DNA from: a virus
Lineage: Duplodnaviria; Caudoviricetes
Virus record (IMG/VR): IMGVR_UViG_3300025276_003682
Location: 1-59,988 of that record
Length of the DNA: 59,988 bases
Reading direction: 5' to 3' (one strand)
The position numbers and the translations under genes were made by a program. The notes under the pieces were generated by a model that saw only the letters and a program-made list of their open reading frames with translations, did not search any database and had not been told where the DNA came from. Shown here piece after piece: positions 2,762 to 56,534 of the stretch (the first letter of the stretch is position 1; the number at the start of each line of letters is the position of its first letter).

Positions 2762-4003
2762 ATGGCAACCATAGGAGGACCTAATACAGAAAAAGATAAC
2801 TTAGTATTTGGATACGATACCGGGTACGGTGTGGCTGACAATACTTCTTCTACTAGATTTTACCCTGGTGAATCAACTGTTAACTATACTACTGATACAC
2901 CATCTCAAGGAGGGTGGACAGGAACATATAGCGTTCTTGATTCTTCTTTAAAAAAGTTTAGATTTAATGTAAGCAACTTTTCTGCTAATCCAGGAAGTGG
3001 CTGGAGGTCGTTTACTTGGGATTTACGTGCATACACAGGGCAATCAGTTACTATATCAGCTACAGTAGAGGCGCCAAGCTCAAGCCCAGGAACATTTGCT
3101 TGGGTAATGATGGGTCAAGGGAATACACATACAAATACTAGTGGCGCTGGTGGGTACATGGGTTATTCGGCTGCTAGTGAGAGAGTATATAAATCTACTA
3201 CAACTAAAGAACATATTACTTGGAGCGGAACATTAGGTAATTCAGGAACAGCTAACTCTCCATCAGGGCATATAGGTTTTACAGTATGGTACAACAACGG
3301 AGTCCCTGGCACTAGCTCTTACGTAGAAGTTTCAGATGTTCAAATAGAACTAAAGTCTCATGAAACACCATTTGTAAATGGAACAAGATCAGATACAGCG
3401 TCTCTAATAGACTTAACAAAAACAACTGATATAGGTGTATCAAATGTAAGTTTTGATTCAACAGGACAGCTTACCTTTGATGGCAGTAATGACCAGGTAG
3501 TAGTAGATGTAGACGATATAGTAAGAAACACCAGTAACATAACTATTGAAGGTATAGTTAATGCAACATCTATAAGTTCTGCAGGTCCTTGGGCTGTATT
3601 AACAGACCATGCGGCAGCAACCGATAAAGATGGGTTTTGGTGGCATTATAATATAGGGAATGCTGTTTACTTTAGAGTTGAAGACGCAACCGCTGGAGAG
3701 CAGGGCACAACCTTTTCAGGATCAGTTCCCTTCGTAGCTAACACCTATCAACATGTAGTGACAGTTGTAGGAGATAACAATGTTAAAGTATATGTTAATG
3801 GAGTATTATCCAAATCATATACCCCTAACTTTAAATGGAATAGAATAGACTCAACTAAAACTGCTTACCTACATATAGGTCGTACATACCCCAACTACTA
3901 CTTATCATGTGCAATACCAGTTTTTAAAATGCATAATAGAGAACTATCAGTTGACGAAATAAAACAAAATTACAACGCATATAAAAATAGATTTGATATA
4001 TAA
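2762..4003 (+). CDS. LamG-like lectin domain virion protein, paralog 2
   Basis: Same N-terminal (LVFGYDTGYGVADN), linker and C-terminal (QNYNAYKNRF) blocks as 1306..2424. Confidence 0.75.
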   Translation: MATIGGPNTEKDNLVFGYDTGYGVADNTSSTRFYPGESTVNYTTDTPSQGGWTGTYSVLDSSLKKFRFNVSNFSANPGSGWRSFTWDLRAYTGQSVTISATVEAPSSSPGTFAWVMMGQGNTHTNTSGAGGYMGYSAASERVYKSTTTKEHITWSGTLGNSGTANSPSGHIGFTVWYNNGVPGTSSYVEVSDVQIELKSHETPFVNGTRSDTASLIDLTKTTDIGVSNVSFDSTGQLTFDGSNDQVVVDVDDIVRNTSNITIEGIVNATSISSAGPWAVLTDHAAATDKDGFWWHYNIGNAVYFRVEDATAGEQGTTFSGSVPFVANTYQHVVTVVGDNNVKVYVNGVLSKSYTPNFKWNRIDSTKTAYLHIGRTYPNYYLSCAIPVFKMHNRELSVDEIKQNYNAYKNRFDI

Positions 4004-20415: not shown

Positions 20416-20444
20416 TTGTAGAATTAAATATTAGTTCTTATATT
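20416..20444 (+). promoter_or_regulatory. Putative Bacteroidota-type sigma promoter TTG-N20-TATATT
   Basis: The same bipartite motif, with spacing counted at 19-20 nt, has TTG at 20416, 23654, 35809, 37656, 45193, 48834, 51929, 54928 and 57043 (TAG variant at 46298). It resembles the Bacteroidota -33 TTG / -7 TAnnTTTG promoter. Confidence 0.7.
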
Positions 20445-44778: not shown

Positions 44779-45192
44779 ATGATATATATAATTTTAATTA
44801 CACTTCTCCTAGTTAGTCTAGGAGGAGTTACTTTACTCTATAAAAAAAAGATAGCAAACTTAAAAGCCGACTTTGAAAGTGAAAGAGCAGAGATAAGAAG
44901 AGATGCTAAAAAAAGATCCGGTGCTGTACAATGGGGTAAGACTATAGAACACTTCGTACCATTTATGACCGACTTTCCAGTACCTCCTGAAGATTGTACG
45001 TTCTTAGGTATGCCAATAGACTACGTTGCTTTTAAAGATACTGGAAGTAAGAATAAATGCTCGGTACATTTCGTAGAAGTAAAAAGCGGTAGCGCGTTTC
45101 TTATGGGAAAACAGAAGAATATAAAAAAGGCGATTGAAGAAGGTAGAGTGTTTTGGCATGAAATATCCGTAGATGGAAATAATGTAAAATAG
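44779..45192 (+). CDS. Holliday-junction-resolvase-like PD-(D/E)xK endonuclease with N-terminal membrane anchor
   Basis: Hydrophobic N-terminus, G...EHFVPF, FLG.PIDYVAF, FVEVKSG and Q..IK.AIE.G.V.W. Confidence 0.8.
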   Translation: MIYIILITLLLVSLGGVTLLYKKKIANLKADFESERAEIRRDAKKRSGAVQWGKTIEHFVPFMTDFPVPPEDCTFLGMPIDYVAFKDTGSKNKCSVHFVEVKSGSAFLMGKQKNIKKAIEEGRVFWHEISVDGNNVK

Positions 45193-46380: not shown

Positions 46381-47172
46381 ATGGCAAAACATGTAGTTGT
46401 AAGTCTTAGTGGGGGAATGGACTCCTCAACATTATTATTAAGAGCATTAAAAGAATACGATACTGTAACTGGTATTTCATTTGACTATGGTCAAAAACAT
46501 AGGGTAGAGTTAGAAAGAGCTCAAGAATTAATTAATTATCTAGCAGATAAAGGTCATAAAGTAAATTATCGCCAAATTAAACTAGACGGATTAGTAGATT
46601 TACTAGACTCAGCTCTAGTAGAAGGTGGAAATGATGTACCAGAAGGACATTACGAAAATGAAAATATGAAAGATACTGTCGTACCTAATAGGAATAAAAT
46701 ATTTGCTTCTATTGTACAAGCTGTAGCATTATCAATAGCAAATAGAGAAGAAGAAACTTGTGATATTGCTTTAGGTATTCATGCTGGTGATCATGCTGTT
46801 TATCCTGATTGTAGACAAGAATTTAGAGATGCAGATGATAAAGCATTTAGAGAAGGTAATTGGGAGGCTGATAGAGTAGGGTACTTTACACCTTACTTAG
46901 ATACAGATAAATTTGGAATCTTACAAGATGGAGAACGATTGGTTAAAAAGTTGGGTCTTAGTTTCGATGAAGTATACAAAAGAACAAATACTTCTTATAA
47001 GCCTTATCCTTCAGGAAATAGTGATTATAAGTCTGCTTCTAGTGTTGAGAGGATTGAGGCTTTTATTGCCCTTGGCCGAAAAGATCCCGTACAGTATGAG
47101 GATGAAACTGGAGAAGTGGATTACGAAGTAGCGAGAAAACACGTTGAGAACGTTTTATCTGCATATTTATAA
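46381..47172 (+). CDS. queC: 7-cyano-7-deazaguanine (preQ0) synthase
   Basis: SLSGGMDS, FDYGQKH..EL, VVPNRN and HAGDHAVYPDCR. Confidence 0.95.
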   Translation: MAKHVVVSLSGGMDSSTLLLRALKEYDTVTGISFDYGQKHRVELERAQELINYLADKGHKVNYRQIKLDGLVDLLDSALVEGGNDVPEGHYENENMKDTVVPNRNKIFASIVQAVALSIANREEETCDIALGIHAGDHAVYPDCRQEFRDADDKAFREGNWEADRVGYFTPYLDTDKFGILQDGERLVKKLGLSFDEVYKRTNTSYKPYPSGNSDYKSASSVERIEAFIALGRKDPVQYEDETGEVDYEVARKHVENVLSAYL

Positions 47173-47959: not shown

Positions 47960-48547
47960 ATGAAAAAGAGTACAAAACACCTTATAATAGTAGGCCACCC
48001 TGATCAGAAATCTTTCTGCTATAGTGGCATATACAAAACCATTATTAGACAGATGAATAAGTATAACTCGGAATATAGAGTTATCGACTTGTATGAAGAT
48101 AAATTACATAGAGATAAAAAAGACCTGATAAAAAACTATAAGAAGTTAGTTACTTGGTCAACCCATATGTACTTTGTTTCACCAGTATGGTGGTTCAGGT
48201 TAACACCTAAGTTAGAAATGTTTTTTGACGAAGTATTCACACCTGGATTTGCATATAAATTTGTACCAATAGTAGGAAAGTATGCATACCCAAAACCATT
48301 CTTCAGTAATAAGAAAGTAAGGACGTATATTACACACGGAGCTCCAAAATTACCAGTTATAACACTGTATTTAAACTCTGTAAAGTTAAGACTAGTTATG
48401 GGAGTGTATACATTCGTATTTGGCTGGAACTTAAACAGATGGACTAAGACAAAACAATTCTGGTCAGTACCATTTGTATCAAAAGAAAAACGTAGAAAAT
48501 ACTTAAGAATAGTAAAAGAAGATATTAGAAAAGATTTAGGACTATGA
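47960..48547 (+). CDS. Flavodoxin-fold NAD(P)H-dependent oxidoreductase
   Basis: IIVGHPDQKSF, IDLY and SPVWWF..TP.L..FFDEVFTPGFAY. Confidence 0.85.
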   Translation: MKKSTKHLIIVGHPDQKSFCYSGIYKTIIRQMNKYNSEYRVIDLYEDKLHRDKKDLIKNYKKLVTWSTHMYFVSPVWWFRLTPKLEMFFDEVFTPGFAYKFVPIVGKYAYPKPFFSNKKVRTYITHGAPKLPVITLYLNSVKLRLVMGVYTFVFGWNLNRWTKTKQFWSVPFVSKEKRRKYLRIVKEDIRKDLGL

Positions 48548-48816: not shown

Positions 48817-48880
48817 AAAAAACGTATATTTAGTTGGAGATAAGAAATATTCTGACTATATTATACTATAGGTAATAATT

Positions 48881-48908
48881 AGTGTCGTAGCACCACTTTA
48901 AAAACACA
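48881..48908 (+). ncRNA. preQ1-I riboswitch-like aptamer in the leader of the queD/queE operon
   Basis: AGUG-UCGUAG-CAC-CACU-UUAAAAA-CACA: 4-bp P1 closed by G-C, UCGYAG loop, C before the 3' strand, A-rich tail then C. Lies between a promoter (TATATT at 48857) and the ATG at 48912. Confidence 0.7.
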
Positions 48909-48911
48909 CGT

Positions 48912-49136
48912 ATGCAAGAAGAAATACAAAAAGAGTTATGGAATAGAGAAATTAGAAACTCTATAAAAATCGACGGACAGAAGATACCTGATCCGAAATT
49001 ACATCAAAGAATATCTTTTATTAAATCAGCTATAAGAATGGGAGCATGTGCTTTGGGATTCTTTGGTATGTTTGAAGTTGGATTTATTGGACTATTTTTA
49101 GCAGAAATAGTTGGAATTGGTGAAGAATTAGTTTAA
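48912..49136 (+). CDS. Small membrane protein (74 aa), first gene of the queD/queE operon
   Basis: C-terminal hydrophobic hairpin (ISFIKSAIRMGAC...LAEIVGIGEELV). Confidence 0.65.
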   Translation: MQEEIQKELWNREIRNSIKIDGQKIPDPKLHQRISFIKSAIRMGACALGFFGMFEVGFIGLFLAEIVGIGEELV

Positions 49137-49145
49137 ATTATAATT

Positions 49146-49610
49146 ATGGGAAAATACCAATCAACAAAAGTATTTGACGGATACTCTACTGTATTTCGTC
49201 AATGGAAAGCAACAACTACACATTGTTCTAAACTACACGGATACGGTGTATCGTTTAAGATATGGTTTGAAGGAGAATTAGATGAAAGAAATTGGGTCTG
49301 GGATTTCGGAGGAATGAAAAGAGCTAAAGGGACTATAGAAAAGATGACACCTAAGGCATGGATGGATTATATGTTTGATCATACCTTTTTAGTAGCTGAA
49401 GATGATCCGTTCAAAGAATCTTTTATGCAAATGGACTTAGCAAAAGTAGCCCAAGTAAGAGTAGTTCCGGCAACAGGAGCAGAGAGCTTTGCTAAATTTA
49501 TTTACGAAAGTATAAATCCATTTATTGAATCAGAAACTGACGGAAGAGTTAAGATAGTTAAAGTAGAATTTAGAGAACACGCTAAAAACAGTGCAATTTA
49601 TGTCGCATAA
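49146..49610 (+). CDS. queD: 6-carboxy-5,6,7,8-tetrahydropterin synthase
   Basis: RQW...THCSKLHGY, WVWDFGG, FDHTFL, GAESFA and EFREHAKNSAIY. Confidence 0.9.
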   Translation: MGKYQSTKVFDGYSTVFRQWKATTTHCSKLHGYGVSFKIWFEGELDERNWVWDFGGMKRAKGTIEKMTPKAWMDYMFDHTFLVAEDDPFKESFMQMDLAKVAQVRVVPATGAESFAKFIYESINPFIESETDGRVKIVKVEFREHAKNSAIYVA

Positions 49611-50388
49611 ACAGTTAAAAAGGGTAGAAGACTACGATAAGAATTTACCTATTGTAGAAATATATACAGCAGTGCAGTCTGAAGGTTCAAGAGCAGGGTA
49701 TCCTACAGTGGTAATTAGAACAACAGGATGTACACACAGATGCTACTTCGGTGAAGGAGGATGGTGTGATAGTTGGTATACAAGTATTCATCCGGAAAAG
49801 GGACATTTTAATTTCAAAGATATTATTAAGGCATATGAAGATAATCCTCATATTAAGGAAATGATGTTGACTGGCGGTTCACCAACAATGCATCCAGCCT
49901 TAGTAAACGAACTAACACACTTTGCACATGAAAACAATATATTCATTACTATTGAAACTGAGGGATCTCATTTTCTGCCTACCGATTATCCTATTAATTT
50001 GCTTAGCATTAGTCCTAAGTTTAGTAATAGTGTCCCCGTTGTTGGTGTTGAAACTCCTCAAGGAGCCATTACCGACGAAAGAATGGTAAAACGTCATAAT
50101 AAGTTTAGACTTAATTATGATGCAATAAAACAATCAATTACTTACCATTCTGACTACCATATTAAACCTGTATGGGACGGTAAAGATGAGGGAGCATTAT
50201 CCGAGATTATGGAATGTATTAGTATCTTAGAAGTACCTCAACATAAAGTTTGGTTTATGCCTGCTGGAGATTCTAGAGAAGCACTATTTAAATCTTACCC
50301 CGTATTATTTGATTGGGTTAGAGATAATGGTTATAGAATGACTTGGAGACCGCACATTATTGCTTTCGAAGATCAACGTGAAGTATAG
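49591..50388 (+). CDS. queE: 7-carboxy-7-deazaguanine synthase (radical SAM)
   Basis: EIY..VQSEG...G.P...IRT.GC...C.......CDS, LTGGSP, ITIETEG and SISPK. The start may be the ATG at 49600. Confidence 0.92.
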   Translation: MQFMSHKQLKRVEDYDKNLPIVEIYTAVQSEGSRAGYPTVVIRTTGCTHRCYFGEGGWCDSWYTSIHPEKGHFNFKDIIKAYEDNPHIKEMMLTGGSPTMHPALVNELTHFAHENNIFITIETEGSHFLPTDYPINLLSISPKFSNSVPVVGVETPQGAITDERMVKRHNKFRLNYDAIKQSITYHSDYHIKPVWDGKDEGALSEIMECISILEVPQHKVWFMPAGDSREALFKSYPVLFDWVRDNGYRMTWRPHIIAFEDQREV

Positions 50389-50522
50389 TGGATAAAAAAG
50401 AGGCATTAGAAATATTAGAAACTATAGCAGAAAACATTAATACATGTTGTGCAATTACTATGGAACCAGATGACGTTTTGGTACTATGTGATAAACTAAA
50501 AATATATATAGAGAATGATTAA
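50388..50522 (+). CDS. Small hypothetical protein (44 aa, GTG start; not in the ORF track)
   Basis: MDKKEALEILETIAENINTCCAITMEPDD...END*. It overlaps both neighbouring genes. Confidence 0.5.
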   Translation: MDKKEALEILETIAENINTCCAITMEPDDVLVLCDKLKIYIEND

Positions 50523-50814
50523 CTTAAAAGAATTAATAGAATCAGCAGGTCCGGATAGACTTGACCACACGGTTACTATAGAAGGAAGCCCAGTTTGGGA
50601 CTATAAAATGGGAGGTGTACATACTGTATTTCTCATATCTGAAGACCCTTGGGAGGGTGTAGAAGAAGAGTACGTAACTTTAAGAGAACTGAGAAAGTAC
50701 ATAGTAGACAGCTTCATACCTTTCGATTCAGTAAAATTTAAAACAGAAGCAGATAGAGAATTAATTAAAAGTTTCAAATGGGAAGAAAAGCAATTAGTAT
50801 TATCACATTACTAG
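50515..50814 (+). CDS. Hypothetical protein (99 aa)
   Basis: Clean ORF in the operon. Confidence 0.6.
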   Translation: MINLKELIESAGPDRLDHTVTIEGSPVWDYKMGGVHTVFLISEDPWEGVEEEYVTLRELRKYIVDSFIPFDSVKFKTEADRELIKSFKWEEKQLVLSHY

Positions 50815-51359
50815 TATTATTACCTTTTGCAGGTGTTAGTCAAGTAATAGAAGTAGAAACAAAGATATACAAGGTACTGTACGATCAAGATTTAAAACAA
50901 CCTCTTGAAGTTAGGTACACAGTACAGTGTCCTAAAGGAGATGCTGACAGAGCAGGAATGGATTTTAGAACCGTTCCTAATGTGATCACATCTAGACCAG
51001 AAGACTACTCTAACAATGTATGGGATAAAGGTCATCTTGCTCCTGCAGCAGCATTTAGTTGTACTAAGGAGATGTTAAGAGAAACGTTTCTATACTTTAA
51101 CTGTGCTCTTCAACATGAAAGTTTAAATAGAGGAGTATGGAATAGGTTAGAACAATTCGAAAGAAGTCTAGCTAACTTCTATCAAGTCGAAGTAGTAATA
51201 GAGGTAATATTTGACGACAAGGTCAGAAGAGTTCCTACAGGAGCAGCAATACCTAAAGAATTTACAAAGACTATAAAGTTTGGTGATAAGAATTTAAAAT
51301 TTAGGTTCCCAAACACCAATACATCAGGAACGAATTGGATTGACTACTTAATAGACTAA
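50778..51359 (+). CDS. DNA/RNA non-specific endonuclease (NucA/EndoG-like) with signal peptide
   Basis: N-terminal signal (RKAISIITLLVLLPFAGVSQ), WDKGHLAPAA and N.ALQ...LNRGVW..LE..ER. Confidence 0.85.
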   Translation: MGRKAISIITLLVLLPFAGVSQVIEVETKIYKVLYDQDLKQPLEVRYTVQCPKGDADRAGMDFRTVPNVITSRPEDYSNNVWDKGHLAPAAAFSCTKEMLRETFLYFNCALQHESLNRGVWNRLEQFERSLANFYQVEVVIEVIFDDKVRRVPTGAAIPKEFTKTIKFGDKNLKFRFPNTNTSGTNWIDYLID

Positions 51360-51362
51360 AAA

Positions 51363-51533
51363 ATGACAGAGAAAGAATTTATTGACTGGTTAAGAGGATA
51401 CGTAGACGGAGTACATACCTACTCAGTATCACCCAAGCAGTGGCAGTACTTAAAAGATAAAGTTAAAAGTATATCTACAGGATCTACTAGGTATACTATT
51501 GATAGTGATAAGTGGACAACTAACATAGCATAA
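51363..51533 (+). CDS. Small hypothetical protein (56 aa; not in the ORF track)
   Basis: MTEKEFIDWLRGYVDG...TNIA*, exactly filling the gap between genes. Confidence 0.6.
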   Translation: MTEKEFIDWLRGYVDGVHTYSVSPKQWQYLKDKVKSISTGSTRYTIDSDKWTTNIA

Positions 51534-51535
51534 CA

Positions 51536-51940
51536 ATGGAACCAAAGAAAATTTATATTACCTGGGATGAGGTTAACGAATTACTGGATAGAGTATATGA
51601 TCAATGTAAAGAAGATATATCATTAGTAACAGGTGTACCGAGAGGAGGTACAATATTAGCAATACTATTTTCACATAGATTTGATATACAATATACTCCT
51701 TATATGAGTAATCATTACCCCAATATGCTTATACTAGATGATATAGCAGATTCAGGAAAAACATTCAAAGACTTAGAACAAGACTTTCCTAAACCTAAAT
51801 ACGGAGCATTACATTACAAAATCACTTCGGTATTTGAACCAGACTATTACGCAAAGGAAATAGATAAAGACTTTGGATGGATAGTATACCCTTGGGAGAA
51901 AAAAGATTCAAATACTATTCAAAATTATTTGGAGAATTAA
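51536..51940 (+). CDS. Type I purine phosphoribosyltransferase (Gpt-like)
   Basis: ITW, GVPRGG, LILDDIADSGKT PRPP loop and WIVYPWE. Confidence 0.88.
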   Translation: MEPKKIYITWDEVNELLDRVYDQCKEDISLVTGVPRGGTILAILFSHRFDIQYTPYMSNHYPNMLILDDIADSGKTFKDLEQDFPKPKYGALHYKITSVFEPDYYAKEIDKDFGWIVYPWEKKDSNTIQNYLEN

Positions 51941-51970
51941 AATAAATTGCTTATATTATTATTATATTAA

Positions 51971-51998
51971 TGAGTCGTAGAACCTCAAAAAAAACAAT
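51971..51998 (+). ncRNA. preQ1-I riboswitch-like aptamer in the folE leader
   Basis: UGAG-UCGUAG-AAC-CUCA-AAAAAAA-CAAU: same architecture as 48881..48908 with a different, compensated stem. Lies between a promoter (TATATT at 51952) and the folE ATG at 52007. Confidence 0.7.
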
Positions 51999-52006
51999 TA
52001 AAATTT

Positions 52007-52720
52007 ATGCCTAAAAAGTTTATAGACGGAACAGAATTAGTAAAAGCAGGATATGCAAACGGTATATCAAGTCAATTAGCAGAGAAGCAAAAAGCAGAAG
52101 GACCTGAAGCTAGATTAACTGAACATGAGAAACAAGTAATTATAGAAAGAGCAGCAAATGCTTATGCAGATTTTCTAACTGCATTAGGATGTAACTATAA
52201 AGACGATCCTAATTCATCTGAGACCCCTCATAGAGTAGCAAAAGCATACGTTAATGATTTATGGGCAGGAAGGTATAACCCTTTAGACCGTATTACAGCA
52301 TTTCCTTCAGACGGATATGACGGTATTGTACAGGAGAGTAATATACCAGTAACGTCTATGTGTTCTCACCATCATCAAGCTATTAGAGGTACAGTAAGTA
52401 TTGCTTATATTGCTTCGGAAGATGGAAAGGTAGTTGGACTATCTAAGCTAAATAGAATAGTAGAGCAATTCGGAAGAAGAGGAGCTATTCAGGAACAACT
52501 TACTGTGGCTATACATAATGCAGTAAATAAGATATGTGAAGGTAATTTAGGAGTTGCAGTACAAGTTAATGCTACTCATGCATGTGTATCCTGTAGAGGA
52601 GTTAAACACGGTGGTGCCTCAATGCAAACAGCAAAACTAACCGGAGCATTTTTACACGAAGATTCTGCAAAAGCAGAATTTTATAAGAATATAGAATTAG
52701 CTTCAATTTGTAAACATTAA
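52007..52720 (+). CDS. folE: GTP cyclohydrolase I
   Basis: ETPHRVAK, SMCSHH, VVGLSKLNRIV, IQEQLT and HACVSCRGV. Confidence 0.95.
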   Translation: MPKKFIDGTELVKAGYANGISSQLAEKQKAEGPEARLTEHEKQVIIERAANAYADFLTALGCNYKDDPNSSETPHRVAKAYVNDLWAGRYNPLDRITAFPSDGYDGIVQESNIPVTSMCSHHHQAIRGTVSIAYIASEDGKVVGLSKLNRIVEQFGRRGAIQEQLTVAIHNAVNKICEGNLGVAVQVNATHACVSCRGVKHGGASMQTAKLTGAFLHEDSAKAEFYKNIELASICKH

Positions 52721-52725
52721 ATATT

Positions 52726-53247
52726 ATGGAAGGAAAACAATTATCATTATTCCCTATACTAGATCCTAAAACTGGAAAAGACTATGTACCTTTTGTTAGT
52801 GAAGTAGAAACATTTAACGACACATTTAATAAACCTAATAACTATGAACCTACTATACCGGCTAAGAAAGAATGGCAATTCGTATATGACTTCATACTCG
52901 AAGAACTTGAAGAATATAGAGAAGCTTGCGAAAACGGAGACATTGTGGAAGTTTTGGACGCTTTGTGCGACATTGCTTATGTTTCCCTTGGGAACGGTAC
53001 TATGTTACATGGTCTTAAGGATAAGATATGGCCAGCATATCAAGAGGTACAGGCAAGTAATATGTCAAAAGCTTGCAAAACTGAAGAAGAAGCCATACAT
53101 AGCGTCAGCAAAAGAACTCAGGAACAAGGTGAGGCCTGCCATTTTGAGAAGATTGATGAGGGACGGTATATTGTCTATAGAACACGTGACAGGAAAGTAA
53201 TGAAAAGCATTAATTACTTCAGACCAGACTTAAAGCAATTCTTCTAG
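52726..53247 (+). CDS. All-alpha NTP pyrophosphohydrolase (MazG/HisE-like)
   Basis: EELEEY, EVLDALCDIAYV, EVQASNMSK and KVMKS..YF.PDL. Confidence 0.85.
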   Translation: MEGKQLSLFPILDPKTGKDYVPFVSEVETFNDTFNKPNNYEPTIPAKKEWQFVYDFILEELEEYREACENGDIVEVLDALCDIAYVSLGNGTMLHGLKDKIWPAYQEVQASNMSKACKTEEEAIHSVSKRTQEQGEACHFEKIDEGRYIVYRTRDRKVMKSINYFRPDLKQFF

Positions 53248-53248
53248 T

Positions 53249-53434
53249 ATGATTGATTTAACTAAACATAAGATATATGTAGATAGTCATAAAATGGAAA
53301 TGGTGCCTCTATCTATAGCAATTAAAGCAGTTAAAGAAGCAAGTACTCCGGAAGTAGAAAAGTATGCAGAGGAGTTTGAAAAAGCAATGGCAGAATTACG
53401 TAACTCAATAAACGACATAAAATTAGATGATTAA
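53249..53434 (+). CDS. Hypothetical protein (61 aa)
   Basis: Tightly packed ORF in the operon. Confidence 0.6.
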   Translation: MIDLTKHKIYVDSHKMEMVPLSIAIKAVKEASTPEVEKYAEEFEKAMAELRNSINDIKLDD

Positions 53435-54227
53435 AATAGCTCATGAAAGTCCTAAAAGTATTTTTAACGATGTACAACAGTATACAGATTATGATTACGC
53501 ATTAGTACATTTATTAGAAGAAGATGAAGAGTACTTAAACCAGTTTAAAGAAGCAGTCAAAAAAGGTAGGGAAGTTATATTAGATAATTCTATTTTTGAA
53601 TTAGAAGAAGCTTTTGATGCTGATAAATTTGCTTACTGGATTAATGAGCTAAGACCAACTTGGTATATAGTACCTGATGCATTAGAAGATACTAAGAAAA
53701 CTATGAGTCAGATGGCTAGCTGGAATATGCACTATTCAAAATCAGTATACGGTAAAAAGATAGGAGTAGTTCAAGGTAAGACATACAAGCAGATAGCAGC
53801 ATGTTACGAATATATGGATAAAATTGCTAATGTAGACATGGTCGCAATATCTTTTGACTATTCGTATTATACCGATTCTATACCTCATCCTAACAAGTAT
53901 GTTAGCTGGATGCTAGGACGTATTAAGCTACTTGGAGATTTAGTAAGAGACGGTATAATAAATGAAGATAAACCTCATCACCTACTAGGTTGTGGACTAC
54001 CTCAAGAGTTTTCTTACTATTCTCAATACCCTTGGATTTACTCCTTAGATACTAGTAACCCTGTCGTGCATGGCATTAAAGGTATACCATACGGTTCAGA
54101 TGGATTATTCTCAAAAGAAAGACAAAAGCTTCATGAACTCATTAATTTTGAAGTAGAAGATACGAATTTAATTCTAAATAATATTCATAAATTTAAATGG
54201 CTTACAAATGGAAAGAGAGCAGTATAA
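53427..54227 (+). CDS. dpdA: TGT-fold transglycosylase-like protein, divergent DpdA (probably DpdA3-type)
   Basis: TGT-like motif order ILDNSIFE, IVPD, GVVQG, HHLLG, SLDTS, inside the deazaguanine cluster. Confidence 0.72.
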   Translation: MIKIAHESPKSIFNDVQQYTDYDYALVHLLEEDEEYLNQFKEAVKKGREVILDNSIFELEEAFDADKFAYWINELRPTWYIVPDALEDTKKTMSQMASWNMHYSKSVYGKKIGVVQGKTYKQIAACYEYMDKIANVDMVAISFDYSYYTDSIPHPNKYVSWMLGRIKLLGDLVRDGIINEDKPHHLLGCGLPQEFSYYSQYPWIYSLDTSNPVVHGIKGIPYGSDGLFSKERQKLHELINFEVEDTNLILNNIHKFKWLTNGKRAV

Positions 54228-54399
54228 GGTAGGAGATAAAGTAAAATTTAATTTTATTGGCCAAGTAGAAGTCGGGGTTATAGAAACAATAAGCGAAGGT
54301 TATGTGAACTTCTCTAGCTATAATACTAAATACAGCATCAGATGTGGAGCACATTTATATCCAATCTCTTATGAAGGTATAGAACAAATAGTAAAATGA
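54208..54399 (+). CDS. Hypothetical protein (63 aa, SH3/KOW-like)
   Basis: YKVGDKVKF...G.I pattern. Confidence 0.55.
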   Translation: MEREQYKVGDKVKFNFIGQVEVGVIETISEGYVNFSSYNTKYSIRCGAHLYPISYEGIEQIVK

Positions 54400-54938
54400 G
54401 AAAACCCTGGATAGCATTTTTCAGTCAGACCGGTTCCGAAATAGTAGATATAGCTAATGCAATAGGCTATTGGCCTGATGCTATAATAACTAACGAAAGG
54501 CCTTCAAACATTAGGAAGATAAATAATGACTTACTAGAACAGAACCTACTAGCAACAACAATAAATAAACCCTTAGTAGAGGATTATGAAGAAGTTATAG
54601 GGTTTTATAAGGATCCTGTAATAACACTACACGGATGGTTAAGAATTATGCCTCCTTCTATATGTGAAAAATATAGTATATTTAACGGACATCCAGGACT
54701 TATTACGGAATATCCAGAACTAAAAGGTAAGGATCCACAAATGAAAGCTTTTGAAGGTAAGTACCCGGTGATGGGATGTGTTCTTCATAAGGTAGTTGCA
54801 GGAGTTGATGAAGGAAAAGTTCTAGCAGAAGAGAGATTTAATGCTTTCAATATTACTGAAGAAGAGATGTGGAAGGTAACTAGAGATAGATCTCTATTTC
54901 TTTGGGTAAACTTTCTTAAAAAAGCAGTTGGAAAGTAG
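54396..54938 (+). CDS. dpdN: PurN-like formyltransferase, probable preQ1 formyltransferase (DpdN-like)
   Basis: FSQTGS, LHGWLRIMP, FNGHPGL...YP.LKG.DP and GC..H.V..GVDEG.V. The queF/dpdA context supports the DpdN assignment. Confidence 0.75.
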   Translation: MRKPWIAFFSQTGSEIVDIANAIGYWPDAIITNERPSNIRKINNDLLEQNLLATTINKPLVEDYEEVIGFYKDPVITLHGWLRIMPPSICEKYSIFNGHPGLITEYPELKGKDPQMKAFEGKYPVMGCVLHKVVAGVDEGKVLAEERFNAFNITEEEMWKVTRDRSLFLWVNFLKKAVGK

Positions 54939-54984: not shown

Positions 54985-55110
54985 ATGAAAAAAGAGAGTA
55001 GTTCATTTCAAAGATTAATGGTATTTTTTTTAGAGCAAAATAGAAAATACGGAGGAAACTTTGGAGTTGCAGGAATGTTTAATACATTAAATAGGTTTTA
55101 TGGTAAATAG
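54985..55110 (+). CDS. Small hypothetical protein (41 aa; not in the ORF track)
   Basis: MKKESSSFQRLMVFF...FYGK*, downstream of the promoter at 54928 and overlapping the next start. Confidence 0.45.
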   Translation: MKKESSSFQRLMVFFLEQNRKYGGNFGVAGMFNTLNRFYGK

Positions 55111-55618
55111 AGTTGCACTAGTTGGAGCAAGTAGTACAGGTAAGACTACTGTTTACGAACTATTAAAAAATAAATTACCTAAATACGACTTTGTTAACGA
55201 ATCTACTAGAACAATAGGCTCTTATGGATTTCCTATCAATGAGAAAGGAACTGATGCTACTCAATTAGCTATTAGTTGTTTTCATTTAGAAGCTTTACTA
55301 CAACCTACCAATCAAGTACTCGATAGATGCTTTATGGATGTTGTAGTATATACAAGATTTATGGATAACGTATCAGAAGAGACGTGGAAATATATAGACG
55401 CTACTTGGAATAGGATTAAAAACGAGTACACCCACTACATTTATTTTCCTATAGAATTTGATTCTGTAGATGATGGAGTAAGAAGTGTCAATGAGCTTTG
55501 GAGAAGAGATATTGATGCTGAATTTAAAGATGTATTAGAAGGTGTAAGTCAACCTTATTTGACGATAACAGGTTCTCCTATGCAAAGAGTAGAGCAAATA
55601 TTAAAATTTATAAAATAA
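55100..55618 (+). CDS. P-loop nucleotide kinase-like protein (NadR/AAA_28-like)
   Basis: GASSTGKTT, LDRCFMD...Y, DDGVR and ITGS...RV. Confidence 0.8.
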   Translation: MVNRVALVGASSTGKTTVYELLKNKLPKYDFVNESTRTIGSYGFPINEKGTDATQLAISCFHLEALLQPTNQVLDRCFMDVVVYTRFMDNVSEETWKYIDATWNRIKNEYTHYIYFPIEFDSVDDGVRSVNELWRRDIDAEFKDVLEGVSQPYLTITGSPMQRVEQILKFIK

Positions 55619-55622
55619 AATT

Positions 55623-56534
55623 ATGGCAAACGTTAAGAATTATCAAGAAGTAGTTGAGATTGCTTCTAAGCATTTAGGAAAAGTTGGAGGAGACGGGTAT
55701 AAGGATACATACTCTCCTGAACTGTTAGTAAAAGTACCAAGGTACTTAAATAGAGAAGGTTACGGACTTACGTCTGATAGTTTTGTAGGGGTAGATACTT
55801 GGAACTGTTATGAAGTATCTGCAATTACTACTAAAGGACTTCCGGTAGCAGGTATGTTGAAAATAGTTTGCCCTTCAGATAGTGAATATCACGTAGAATC
55901 TAAATCTATTAAGTTATACTTGAATTCTTTTAATATGACACGGATAGGAGATAATTCTGCAGACTGTATGGCAGTTATAGAAGCAAGAGTAAAGAGGGAT
56001 TTAGATGAGTTACTAGAAACTAATACTACCGTTTCTTTTTATGCCTGTGAAAGCGAAGGAATTCCTATTTCTTTTGAAGGATATTCCGATCTCGGTGCTA
56101 TAGTAGACTTAGATCAAATAGACTTTACAGCTTTCCAGTCAGATGCAAATCAATTAGCAATAGAAGATAGAGTTGATGAGCCTGTAGAGATTAAGTTAAA
56201 ATCTAACTTACTTAGATCTAACTGTAGGGTAACTAACCAGCCAGATTGGGGAGATGTATTTATCAAAATAAAAGGAAGAGACATACCTGCAGCAGATGCA
56301 CTTGCTAAGTATATTGTTAGTCATAGGACCGTTAGTCATTTTCATGAAGAGATTTGTGAAATGGTATTTAAACATCTAATGGATGCTTATAAGCCGGATC
56401 AATTGATGGTATCTTGTTTATATACTAGAAGAGGTGGATTGGATATTAATCCTATAAGAGCAACCCACCAAAGTTTGATACCGGAATTCTTTACAAACAC
56501 AGATTTTAGAATCGCTAAAACCTTAAGACAGTAG
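55623..56534 (+). CDS. queF: NADPH-dependent preQ0 reductase, bimodular type
   Basis: WNCYEVS, VESKSIKLYLNSF, LLRSNCRVTNQPDWG, FHEEICE and YTRRGGLDINP. Confidence 0.95.
   Translation: MANVKNYQEVVEIASKHLGKVGGDGYKDTYSPELLVKVPRYLNREGYGLTSDSFVGVDTWNCYEVSAITTKGLPVAGMLKIVCPSDSEYHVESKSIKLYLNSFNMTRIGDNSADCMAVIEARVKRDLDELLETNTTVSFYACESEGIPISFEGYSDLGAIVDLDQIDFTAFQSDANQLAIEDRVDEPVEIKLKSNLLRSNCRVTNQPDWGDVFIKIKGRDIPAADALAKYIVSHRTVSHFHEEICEMVFKHLMDAYKPDQLMVSCLYTRRGGLDINPIRATHQSLIPEFFTNTDFRIAKTLRQ

Follow-up and report, generated by a model that had tools for sequence, protein, structure and literature searches.

Class I preQ1 riboswitches are H-type pseudoknots that combine a 5-bp P1 with a 2-nt L1 and a P2 of four steps (PMC11625349, PMC10622847, PMC10639078). 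As described in these sources, the cytosine just before the 3' strand of P1 pairs with preQ1 (PMC11625349, PMC10622847), a U of L1 and an A of the A-rich L3 read the other edge of the ligand, and the G of the P1-closing pair contacts its aminomethyl group (PMC11625349, PMC10622847, PMC10639078). The specificity position separates the subtypes, 'AC' defining type II and 'UC' type I (PMC11625349), and type III is marked by UU, by a loop rich in pyrimidines and by an AAGG Shine-Dalgarno sequence that pairs in P2 (PMC10622847, PMC11625349). Type III is almost confined to gamma-proteobacterial yhhQ (PMC10622847, PMC11625349), and its E. coli member is described as the smallest naturally occurring aptamer (PMC10622847). 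In the type II aptamer of Thermoanaerobacter, only two of the four P2 steps are canonical (PMC11625349, PMC10639078).

Riboswitches are rarely found in phage genomes, and a survey cites only two kinds, c-di-GMP-I riboswitches of C. difficile prophages and glutamine aptamers from two cyanophages (McCown et al. 2017, PMC5473149). The arrangement proposed below resembles these in being a metabolite-sensing leader carried by a phage, but none of those cited there recognizes the precursor of a DNA base or governs DNA hypermodification (PMC5473149). The word 'phage' does not occur in a review of preQ1 riboswitches (PMC11625349). For the Flavobacterium phage vB_FspM_immuto, all G is reported to be replaced by formyl-preQ1 (10.1101/2023.04.13.536721), and the preprint describing this pathway contains neither 'riboswitch' nor 'regulat' (10.1101/2023.04.13.536721). 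The original prediction, which placed a preQ1-I riboswitch-like aptamer directly in front of a phage folE, also held that riboswitch control of a phage DNA-hypermodification pathway had not been described. A search of the full-text literature (with McCown et al. 2014 and supplements outside its scope) agreed, finding neither a phage preQ1 riboswitch nor riboswitch-controlled deazaguanine DNA modification. The type II alignment of McCown et al. 2014, the paper that defined the three types, may already contain the compact variant described here without comment.

Two copies of the element in the phage genome

The window, the whole 59,988-base stretch of DNA analyzed here, is an IMG/VR virus record of a marine phage with an estimated completeness of 36%, and its closest cultured relatives are the immuto isolates (~74% DNA identity over folE), followed by Cellulophaga phages. 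It carries the whole pathway, QueC, QueD, QueE, FolE, DpdA, a DpdN-like formyltransferase and QueF; these genes, both elements and the promoter-like boxes described below lie on the + strand. The gene behind the predicted aptamer (52007-52720) is GTP cyclohydrolase I, as had been claimed (PF01227, E 3.3e-42). Downstream of it are DpdA (53427-54227), which is 78% identical to the annotated DpdA of immuto, the DpdN-like formyltransferase (54396-54938; Formyl_trans_N match) and QueF (55623-56534; QueF_N/QueF matches). The pathway genes are interleaved with accessory genes encoding a flavodoxin-like protein (47960-48547), a non-specific endonuclease (Endonuclease_NS, 50778-51359), a phosphoribosyltransferase-like protein (51536-51940), a MazG-like NTP pyrophosphohydrolase (52726-53247) and an AAA_28 kinase-like protein (55100-55618).

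Copy 1 sits directly in front of folE, within the 66-nt gap between the stop of the phosphoribosyltransferase-like ORF (51940) and the folE ATG (52007). Every segment of the motif claimed at 51971-51998 is present letter for letter. The 5' strand of P1, UGAG (51971-51974), pairs with CUCA (51984-51987), and both strands show the covariation described below. Between them lies the 9-nt loop UCGUAGAAC (51975-51983), made up of UCGUAG (51975-51980) and AAC (51981-51983), in which UC would correspond to L1, GUAG to a candidate 5' strand of P2 and AAC to L2. The A-rich tail (51988-51998) consists of seven A (51988-51994) followed by CAAU (51995-51998). Judged by its place in the sequence, C51983 is the putative specificity base, and the invariant C51995 is the candidate P2 partner of G51980, the single P2 pair that finds support. 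No purine-rich Shine-Dalgarno sequence precedes the folE ATG, in agreement with the original prediction.

A pattern scan of the window located the same element a second time, at 48881-48908. Copy 2 comprises AGUG (48881-48884), the loop UCGUAGCAC (48885-48893), CACU (48894-48897), UUAAAAA (48898-48904) and CACA (48905-48908), and C48893 is the putative counterpart of the specificity base. An ATG follows at 48912, with no Shine-Dalgarno-like purine run between it and the element, and opens a 74-aa ORF (48912-49136) that is conserved, found in viruses only, and characterized by the motif KIPDPKLHQ.ISFIKS.IR and a hydrophobic C-terminus. This ORF had no Pfam and no PHROG match, and the nearest Atlas clusters are viral hypothetical proteins. 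Downstream are queD (49146-49610; PTPS, PF01242, E 3.3e-15) and queE (49591-50388; radical SAM, PF04055, E 5.2e-07). A further pathway gene, queC (46381-47172; PF06508, 131.9 bits), carries no copy, and the covariance model described below found no match there.

For copies whose loop ends in CAC, folding predicts an alternative 4-bp hairpin, GUGU/GCAC with the loop CGUA (48883-48894 in the window), of slightly greater stability than P1 (-2.4 kcal/mol); the AAC variants cannot form it. According to this folding model, the alternative hairpin could compete with the aptamer fold in the ligand-free state.

The gene set and gene order around folE in immuto match those of the window at ~74% DNA identity, and the folE element is present. 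The phosphoribosyltransferase gene again precedes folE, with a spacer of 70 nt that shares the core GAGUCGUAGAACCUC and the tail AAAAACAAU with the window letter for letter, although the flanks have diverged. The outer pair of P1 is G-C in immuto versus U-A in the window, a compensatory change. Immuto has the folE copy only, whereas the window has two.

Conservation and covariation among relatives

We collected viral stretches encoding relatives of FolE and examined the best 80 of at least 598. The element was present no more than 110 nt upstream of folE in 56 of these 80 loci and absent from that position in the other 24, so that the conservation in related leaders on which the original prediction depended was found in the majority of the loci compared. 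Of these best 80 of at least 598, 72 loci had enough flank to reveal a second copy, and 21 of the 72 carry one at a distance of 1.5-3 kb upstream of folE. Some of these second copies carry UCACAG in the loop instead of UCGUAG.

The stems found among the folE relatives include UGAG/CUCA, GGAG/CUCC, UGUG/CACA, AGUG/CACU, GGUG/CACC and UAAG/CUUA. Across 31 distinct phage sequences, 99.2% of P1 cells are paired, and all but one of the four pairs vary in both partners. For P1 in this set, the covariation score was 0.599 versus 0.142 in shuffles, a value reached by none of 500 shuffles, and sliding the 3' partners lowered pairing to 29-57%. When bacterial copies were added (51 distinct sequences), 99.5% of cells remained paired, and sliding lowered this to 22-56%. 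In this larger set the outer pair occurs in all four Watson-Crick forms (AU, CG, UA and GC), the second pair as GC, CG and AU, and the third as UA and AU; the inner G-C is constant in 51 of 51. Alignment of related folE leaders, which had been suggested as a check of P1, thus yielded changes on both sides in three of four pairs with 99.2-99.5% of cells paired. P1 is strictly 4 bp long, a fifth pair being impossible in every variant seen.

The unpaired positions are conserved as well. In the loop, U, G, AG and AC are invariant among the 31 distinct phage sequences, and the 'AC' before the 3' strand of P1 takes the form AAC, CAC or UAC in every one of them. All elements collected have four or more consecutive A ahead of the C, and the 3' tail is variable after C-A. 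As for P2, a defining feature of the class, the one constant candidate pair joins the final G of the loop to the C behind the A-run (52 of 52 distinct elements). None of the remaining candidate pairs rose above shuffles, the best of them (N8-N28) being paired in 36 of 52 elements versus a shuffle mean of 34.3.

Given that 24 of the 80 relatives lack a folE copy despite similar neighbor genes, and that immuto has a single copy, the control is evidently dispensable. Presence of the element showed no clear difference with respect to DpdA, DpdN, QueD or QueE neighbors in the 80 loci, whose flanks are short. Several loci (L051-L057 and L090, which are folE loci without a folE copy, together with L272 and L276) have a short, plain folE leader and a copy before the small ORF and queD only. 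Since some lineages keep only the small-ORF/queD copy and immuto keeps only the folE copy, the two copies are gained or lost independently of each other.

Genes behind the element in viruses and bacteria

A second, independent viral scan, of the exact pattern against IMG/VR, returned at least 118 stretches, of which 96 loci with 103 matches were new to the analysis. Among the matches listed, 97 of 103 have the full 4-bp P1. The ORF behind these 97 was the small conserved protein preceding queD in 50 instances, with a further eight carrying a variant of its motif; FolE in 29; QueD in three; and QueE in three. Two more ORFs ended at a contig end, and the last two were a 107-aa ORF upstream of QueD (as in L009) and L320, a probable chance match.

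The small protein forms a virus-only family of 61-107 aa with the motif (K)IPDPKLHQ.ISFIKS.IR, the variants PDAKKHQ and PDARKHQ, and a hydrophobic C-terminus. Among the matches listed, it is always encoded just upstream of queD and is the commonest gene directly behind the element. Examples elsewhere include L028:786-989, L040:676-933 and L041:597-830, among many others.

Scanning one genome per bacterial species with the same pattern gave at least 81 matches in at least 80 loci. Of the 81 listed, 33 have the form CCUG-UCGUAGCAC-CAGG-U[U/A]AAAAACA and belong to Thalassospira, Vibrio, Marinomonas, Leucothrix and relatives; two are on the Verrucomicrobiales-assigned contig described below, and the remaining listed matches have mostly unpaired stems and look like chance. 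We examined 16 of the 33 and found five before QueC-like ORFs, ten before QueD-like ORFs and one that was unclear; Pfam confirmed all five of the QueC/QueD-like ORFs tested. Compact aptamers before queC are seen at L128:2507-2537, L173 and L185, those before queD at L148, L130 and L159, and about 27 further bacterial loci carry the element. At the Vibrio locus L159, a GC-rich hairpin and a U-run follow the element, as in a transcriptional riboswitch.

One contig assigned to a Verrucomicrobiales MAG (L175; NYWG01000135.1, 5.9 kb) bears both phage-type copies, at 3192 and 5514, with the small ORF, queD and folE, and is most likely a phage contig that was mis-binned. In 401 Flavobacteriaceae genomes the phage-type pattern gave 15 matches versus about 36 for a reversed control pattern, and only one of the 15 had a full P1, with neither the conserved tail nor a fitting gene context. 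The nearest cellular look-alikes among the genomes searched are the proteobacterial ones. The covariance model built from the phage leaders is too short for whole-genome searches, in which it missed a known Vibrio copy with 150 candidates scored per genome.

Several candidates among cultured phages were rejected. In the Cellulophaga phages phiST and phi13:1, folE abuts queE and there is no leader; the phiST sequence that matched at 22.6 bits is a hairpin resembling a terminator. When copy 2 was compared with cultured phages by BLAST, only chance-level matches appeared (E >= 1), upstream of a T4-like gene 32 and in Streptococcus satellite prophages.

Chance, folding and Rfam comparisons

Exact matches to the 11-mer GTCGTAGMACC are limited to two positions of the window, 51974 and 48884. 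When up to one mismatch was allowed, five matches were found against a shuffle mean of 0.60, and none of 100 shuffles reached five. A covariance model built from the 31 distinct phage leader sequences scored copy 1 at 45.8 bits and copy 2 at 43.6 bits, and the next best score in the 60 kb was 17.2 bits. This third match, at 44822, was discarded as chance because it lies inside an ORF (44779-45192) and lacks the loop consensus.

Thermodynamics of the single sequence gave no significant folding signal, and the hairpin is too small to be informative. The 73-nt leader folds at -1.87 kcal/mol (z = +1.61) and is less structured than its shuffles; the isolated hairpin folds at -1.5 kcal/mol (z = -0.66). 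No Rfam family matched the window at gathering scores. A search with the PreQ1 model at relaxed thresholds, which the original prediction had put forward as a check, turned out non-significant: over 161 nt, RF00522 aligned to copy 1 at 11.1 bits (E = 7; cut-off 39), with P1 deleted by the model. It gave no match at E <= 10 to copy 2 or to a Thalassospira leader copy, and no PreQ1 at gathering score in 12 bacterial loci with the compact element. By this measure copy 1 does not belong to RF00522, and its support comes from covariation and gene context. With the tests on the sequence by itself being weak, the case rests on comparison.

Promoters and start codons

The sequence that had been proposed as a folE promoter is present as TTG (51929-51931), 20 nt and TATATT (51952-51957), and fits a motif recurring in the window. 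In terms of that motif, the promoter-like site of the folE unit (51928-51957) reads TTTG (51928-51931), 18 nt and CTTATATT (51950-51957). Before copy 2, promoter-like boxes (48823-48862) are found as CGTATATT (48823-48830) and CTATATT (48856-48862). The pattern GTTG-N17/18-C[GT]TATATT recurs in intergenic DNA on the + strand at 20437, 23675, 30389, 35829, 45214, 46319, 48823, 51950, 54949 and 57064, and ten of the 15 plus-strand C[GT]TATATT boxes in the window are intergenic and directly upstream of ORFs. The looser YKTATATT gave 46 matches in the window versus a shuffle mean of 31.9. Leaders from box to ATG are mostly 6-42 nt long; that of folE is 49 nt and that of the small ORF 81 nt.

Among 106 distinct phage elements, 94 have a TATATT no more than 70 nt upstream, and its distance to P1 is mostly 6-20 nt, which fits a transcript starting at or just before the aptamer. 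A second TATATT in the window (51963-51968) ends 2 nt before P1, and if this box were the -10 element, the transcript start would fall inside the aptamer. The nearest TATATT is less than 6 nt from P1 in nine of the 94 distinct phage elements with a box.

The start codon follows the conserved C by 6-13 nt in 96 of the 97 viral matches listed, and in the window by 12 nt (folE) and 7 nt (small ORF). No terminator was found in 50500-53500, and there is no room for one between the element and the start codon. A canonical RF00522 aptamer (50 bits) of type-I-like form, the sole match over the cut-off in 151 Flavobacteriaceae genomes sampled, leaves a single nucleotide between its end and the AUG of a transporter gene of the Vut_1/YhhQ family that has no Shine-Dalgarno sequence (L245; G035:C41:20088-20132, - strand). 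An aptamer so close to an AUG that lacks a Shine-Dalgarno sequence is consistent with a translational OFF switch.

Comparison with described preQ1 riboswitches and proposed mechanism

By sequence comparison, the preQ1-contacting positions of solved class I aptamers are all present and invariant in the elements. These include a cytosine immediately 5' of the P1 3' strand, the L1 U, and an A-rich tail whose last A stands before the C of the candidate P2 strand. P1 covaries and is closed by a conserved G-C, with 4 bp versus the 5 bp of described aptamers (PMC10639078). The dimensions given for the proposed minimized class I form (4-bp P1, 9-nt loop, 7-nt tail) are those of copy 1, and the contact positions are invariant in its relatives. 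preQ1 riboswitches in general lie in the 5' leaders of genes for biosynthesis or transport of queuosine and 7-deazaguanines, and the genes here fit that setting: in phages they are folE, queD, queE and the queD-preceding small ORF, and in Proteobacteria queC and queD. One feature of translational preQ1-I riboswitches of the Thermoanaerobacter and E. coli types is absent, in that neither window copy has Shine-Dalgarno nucleotides for P2 or the pocket. Taken with the second copy before queD-queE, the covariation of P1, the invariant contact positions and the linkage to folE, queD, queE and queC support the riboswitch reading of the original prediction.

Because their specificity position reads 'AC', the elements group with type II. 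They share with the aptamers of Thermoanaerobacter tengcongensis and Bacillus subtilis this 'AC', the U after the 5' strand, a G-C closing P1, an A-rich tail ending in a C able to pair with the last loop G, and linkage to 7-deazaguanine genes. The Thermoanaerobacter aptamer, as described, also lies directly at the translation start, as do the elements here (PMC11625349, PMC10639078). In contrast to type II, P1 here has 4 bp rather than 5, it encloses a loop of 9 nt, most tails measure 6-8 nt and no Shine-Dalgarno sequence is involved; moreover, the phage elements are missed by RF00522, are phage-encoded and feed DNA rather than tRNA modification. Like the type III aptamer of the E. coli yhhQ leader, the elements are very small, carry the 'AC' specificity motif and would be expected to have one ligand site, but they differ in their purine-rich loop (GUAG), in the UC that follows P1 and in lacking AAGG. 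At about 28 nt, the element does not exceed the E. coli type III aptamer in size.

We consider it probable that both elements are compact type-II-like preQ1-I riboswitches, sensing preQ1 or preQ0, that repress translation. Each element, about 28 nt long (4-bp P1, 9-nt loop and a 5-9-nt A-rich tail ending in C-A), would stand at or near the 5' end of its mRNA, and together the two would control folE, the entry step from GTP, and the small ORF followed by queD and queE. The trigger would be free preQ1, possibly preQ0, accumulating faster than DpdA inserts the base into phage DNA. The accumulated base would pair with the loop C, the A-tract would dock into the P1 groove and the 3' C would pair with the loop G. 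The folded knot would then take up the unstructured A-rich leader that ribosomes presumably need in a host without Shine-Dalgarno sequences, and with the leader folded away translation is proposed to fall.

Whether the phage elements and the queC/queD leaders of Thalassospira, Vibrio and Marinomonas together constitute an undescribed fourth preQ1-I subtype is a question on which we are evenly divided. Such a subtype would be defined by a strict 4-bp P1, a 9-nt loop, a length of about 28 nt and invisibility to Rfam, and in Flavobacteriia-type phages it would provide two-copy feedback control of DNA hypermodification, free of Shine-Dalgarno sequences, through folding of the A-rich leader.

Alternative explanations

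The same fold might serve in the phage to bind another 7-deazaguanine, such as preQ0, the formyl-preQ1 base, CDG, or even guanine. The pathway does run past preQ1 to a formylated base, as indicated by the DpdN-like gene and by the fdPreQ1 reported in immuto (10.1101/2023.04.13.536721), type II aptamers are described as discriminating weakly between preQ1 and preQ0 (17-fold in Thermoanaerobacter; PMC11625349), and the shorter L2 and L3 could reshape the pocket. Set against this, the same loop and tail stand before queC and queD in Proteobacteria with no sign of the phage pathway, and the specificity C and the G of the closing pair, the aminomethyl contact, are both invariant, so that we regard a different cognate ligand as unlikely. 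Still less probable, though in keeping with an initiation region that offers no Shine-Dalgarno sequence to sequester, would be a preQ1 riboswitch working through Rho-dependent termination, pausing or mRNA decay instead of a block of initiation. Members of the preQ1 family are described as able to induce transcriptional pausing (PMC11625349), but the AUG here is 6-13 nt from the aptamer, inside any ribosome footprint, and 50500-53500 holds no terminator; we judge this mode to be highly improbable.

It is also conceivable that no small molecule is sensed and that the hairpin is an operator for a protein, such as a translational repressor or an RNA chaperone, or an element that affects stability. 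Leader operators to which proteins bind do occur in phages, as at T4 gene 32 and regA, and the present hairpin is tiny and weak, with a P2 that lacks covariation support. However, Flavobacteriia-type phages and Proteobacteria have no obvious partner protein in common, yet their elements agree nucleotide for nucleotide in the unpaired loop and tail; the conserved letters match the preQ1-contacting positions of solved aptamers; and the bacterial copies stand before queC and queD, sometimes with a terminator-like hairpin behind. On this evidence an operator for a protein seems very unlikely. A chance resemblance in an AT-rich leader would agree with the non-significant Rfam match and folding z-scores, but it is already refuted by P1 covariation and the strict gene association, and the two copies and more than 100 viral occurrences likewise speak against it; its probability is negligible.

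Implications

The reading we prefer, preQ1 (or preQ0) riboswitches that repress translation, can be pursued in a cultured system, since immuto grows on Flavobacterium sp. LMO8 and fdPreQ1 in its DNA has already been demonstrated. The absence of the compact variant from annotation before queC and queD in the Proteobacteria examined reveals a blind spot of the standard Rfam model. As a natural aptamer of about 28 nt, the element may be of use in structural and synthetic-biology work, and it offers a test case for translational repression by a riboswitch in bacteria that dispense with Shine-Dalgarno pairing. No phage riboswitch is known to act on a nucleobase-modification pathway of the kind that protects viral DNA from restriction, and the elements appear to be the first riboswitch guarding a viral DNA-modification pathway. 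If this is true, the phage would meter the flux of GTP into its modified base by sensing the free base itself.
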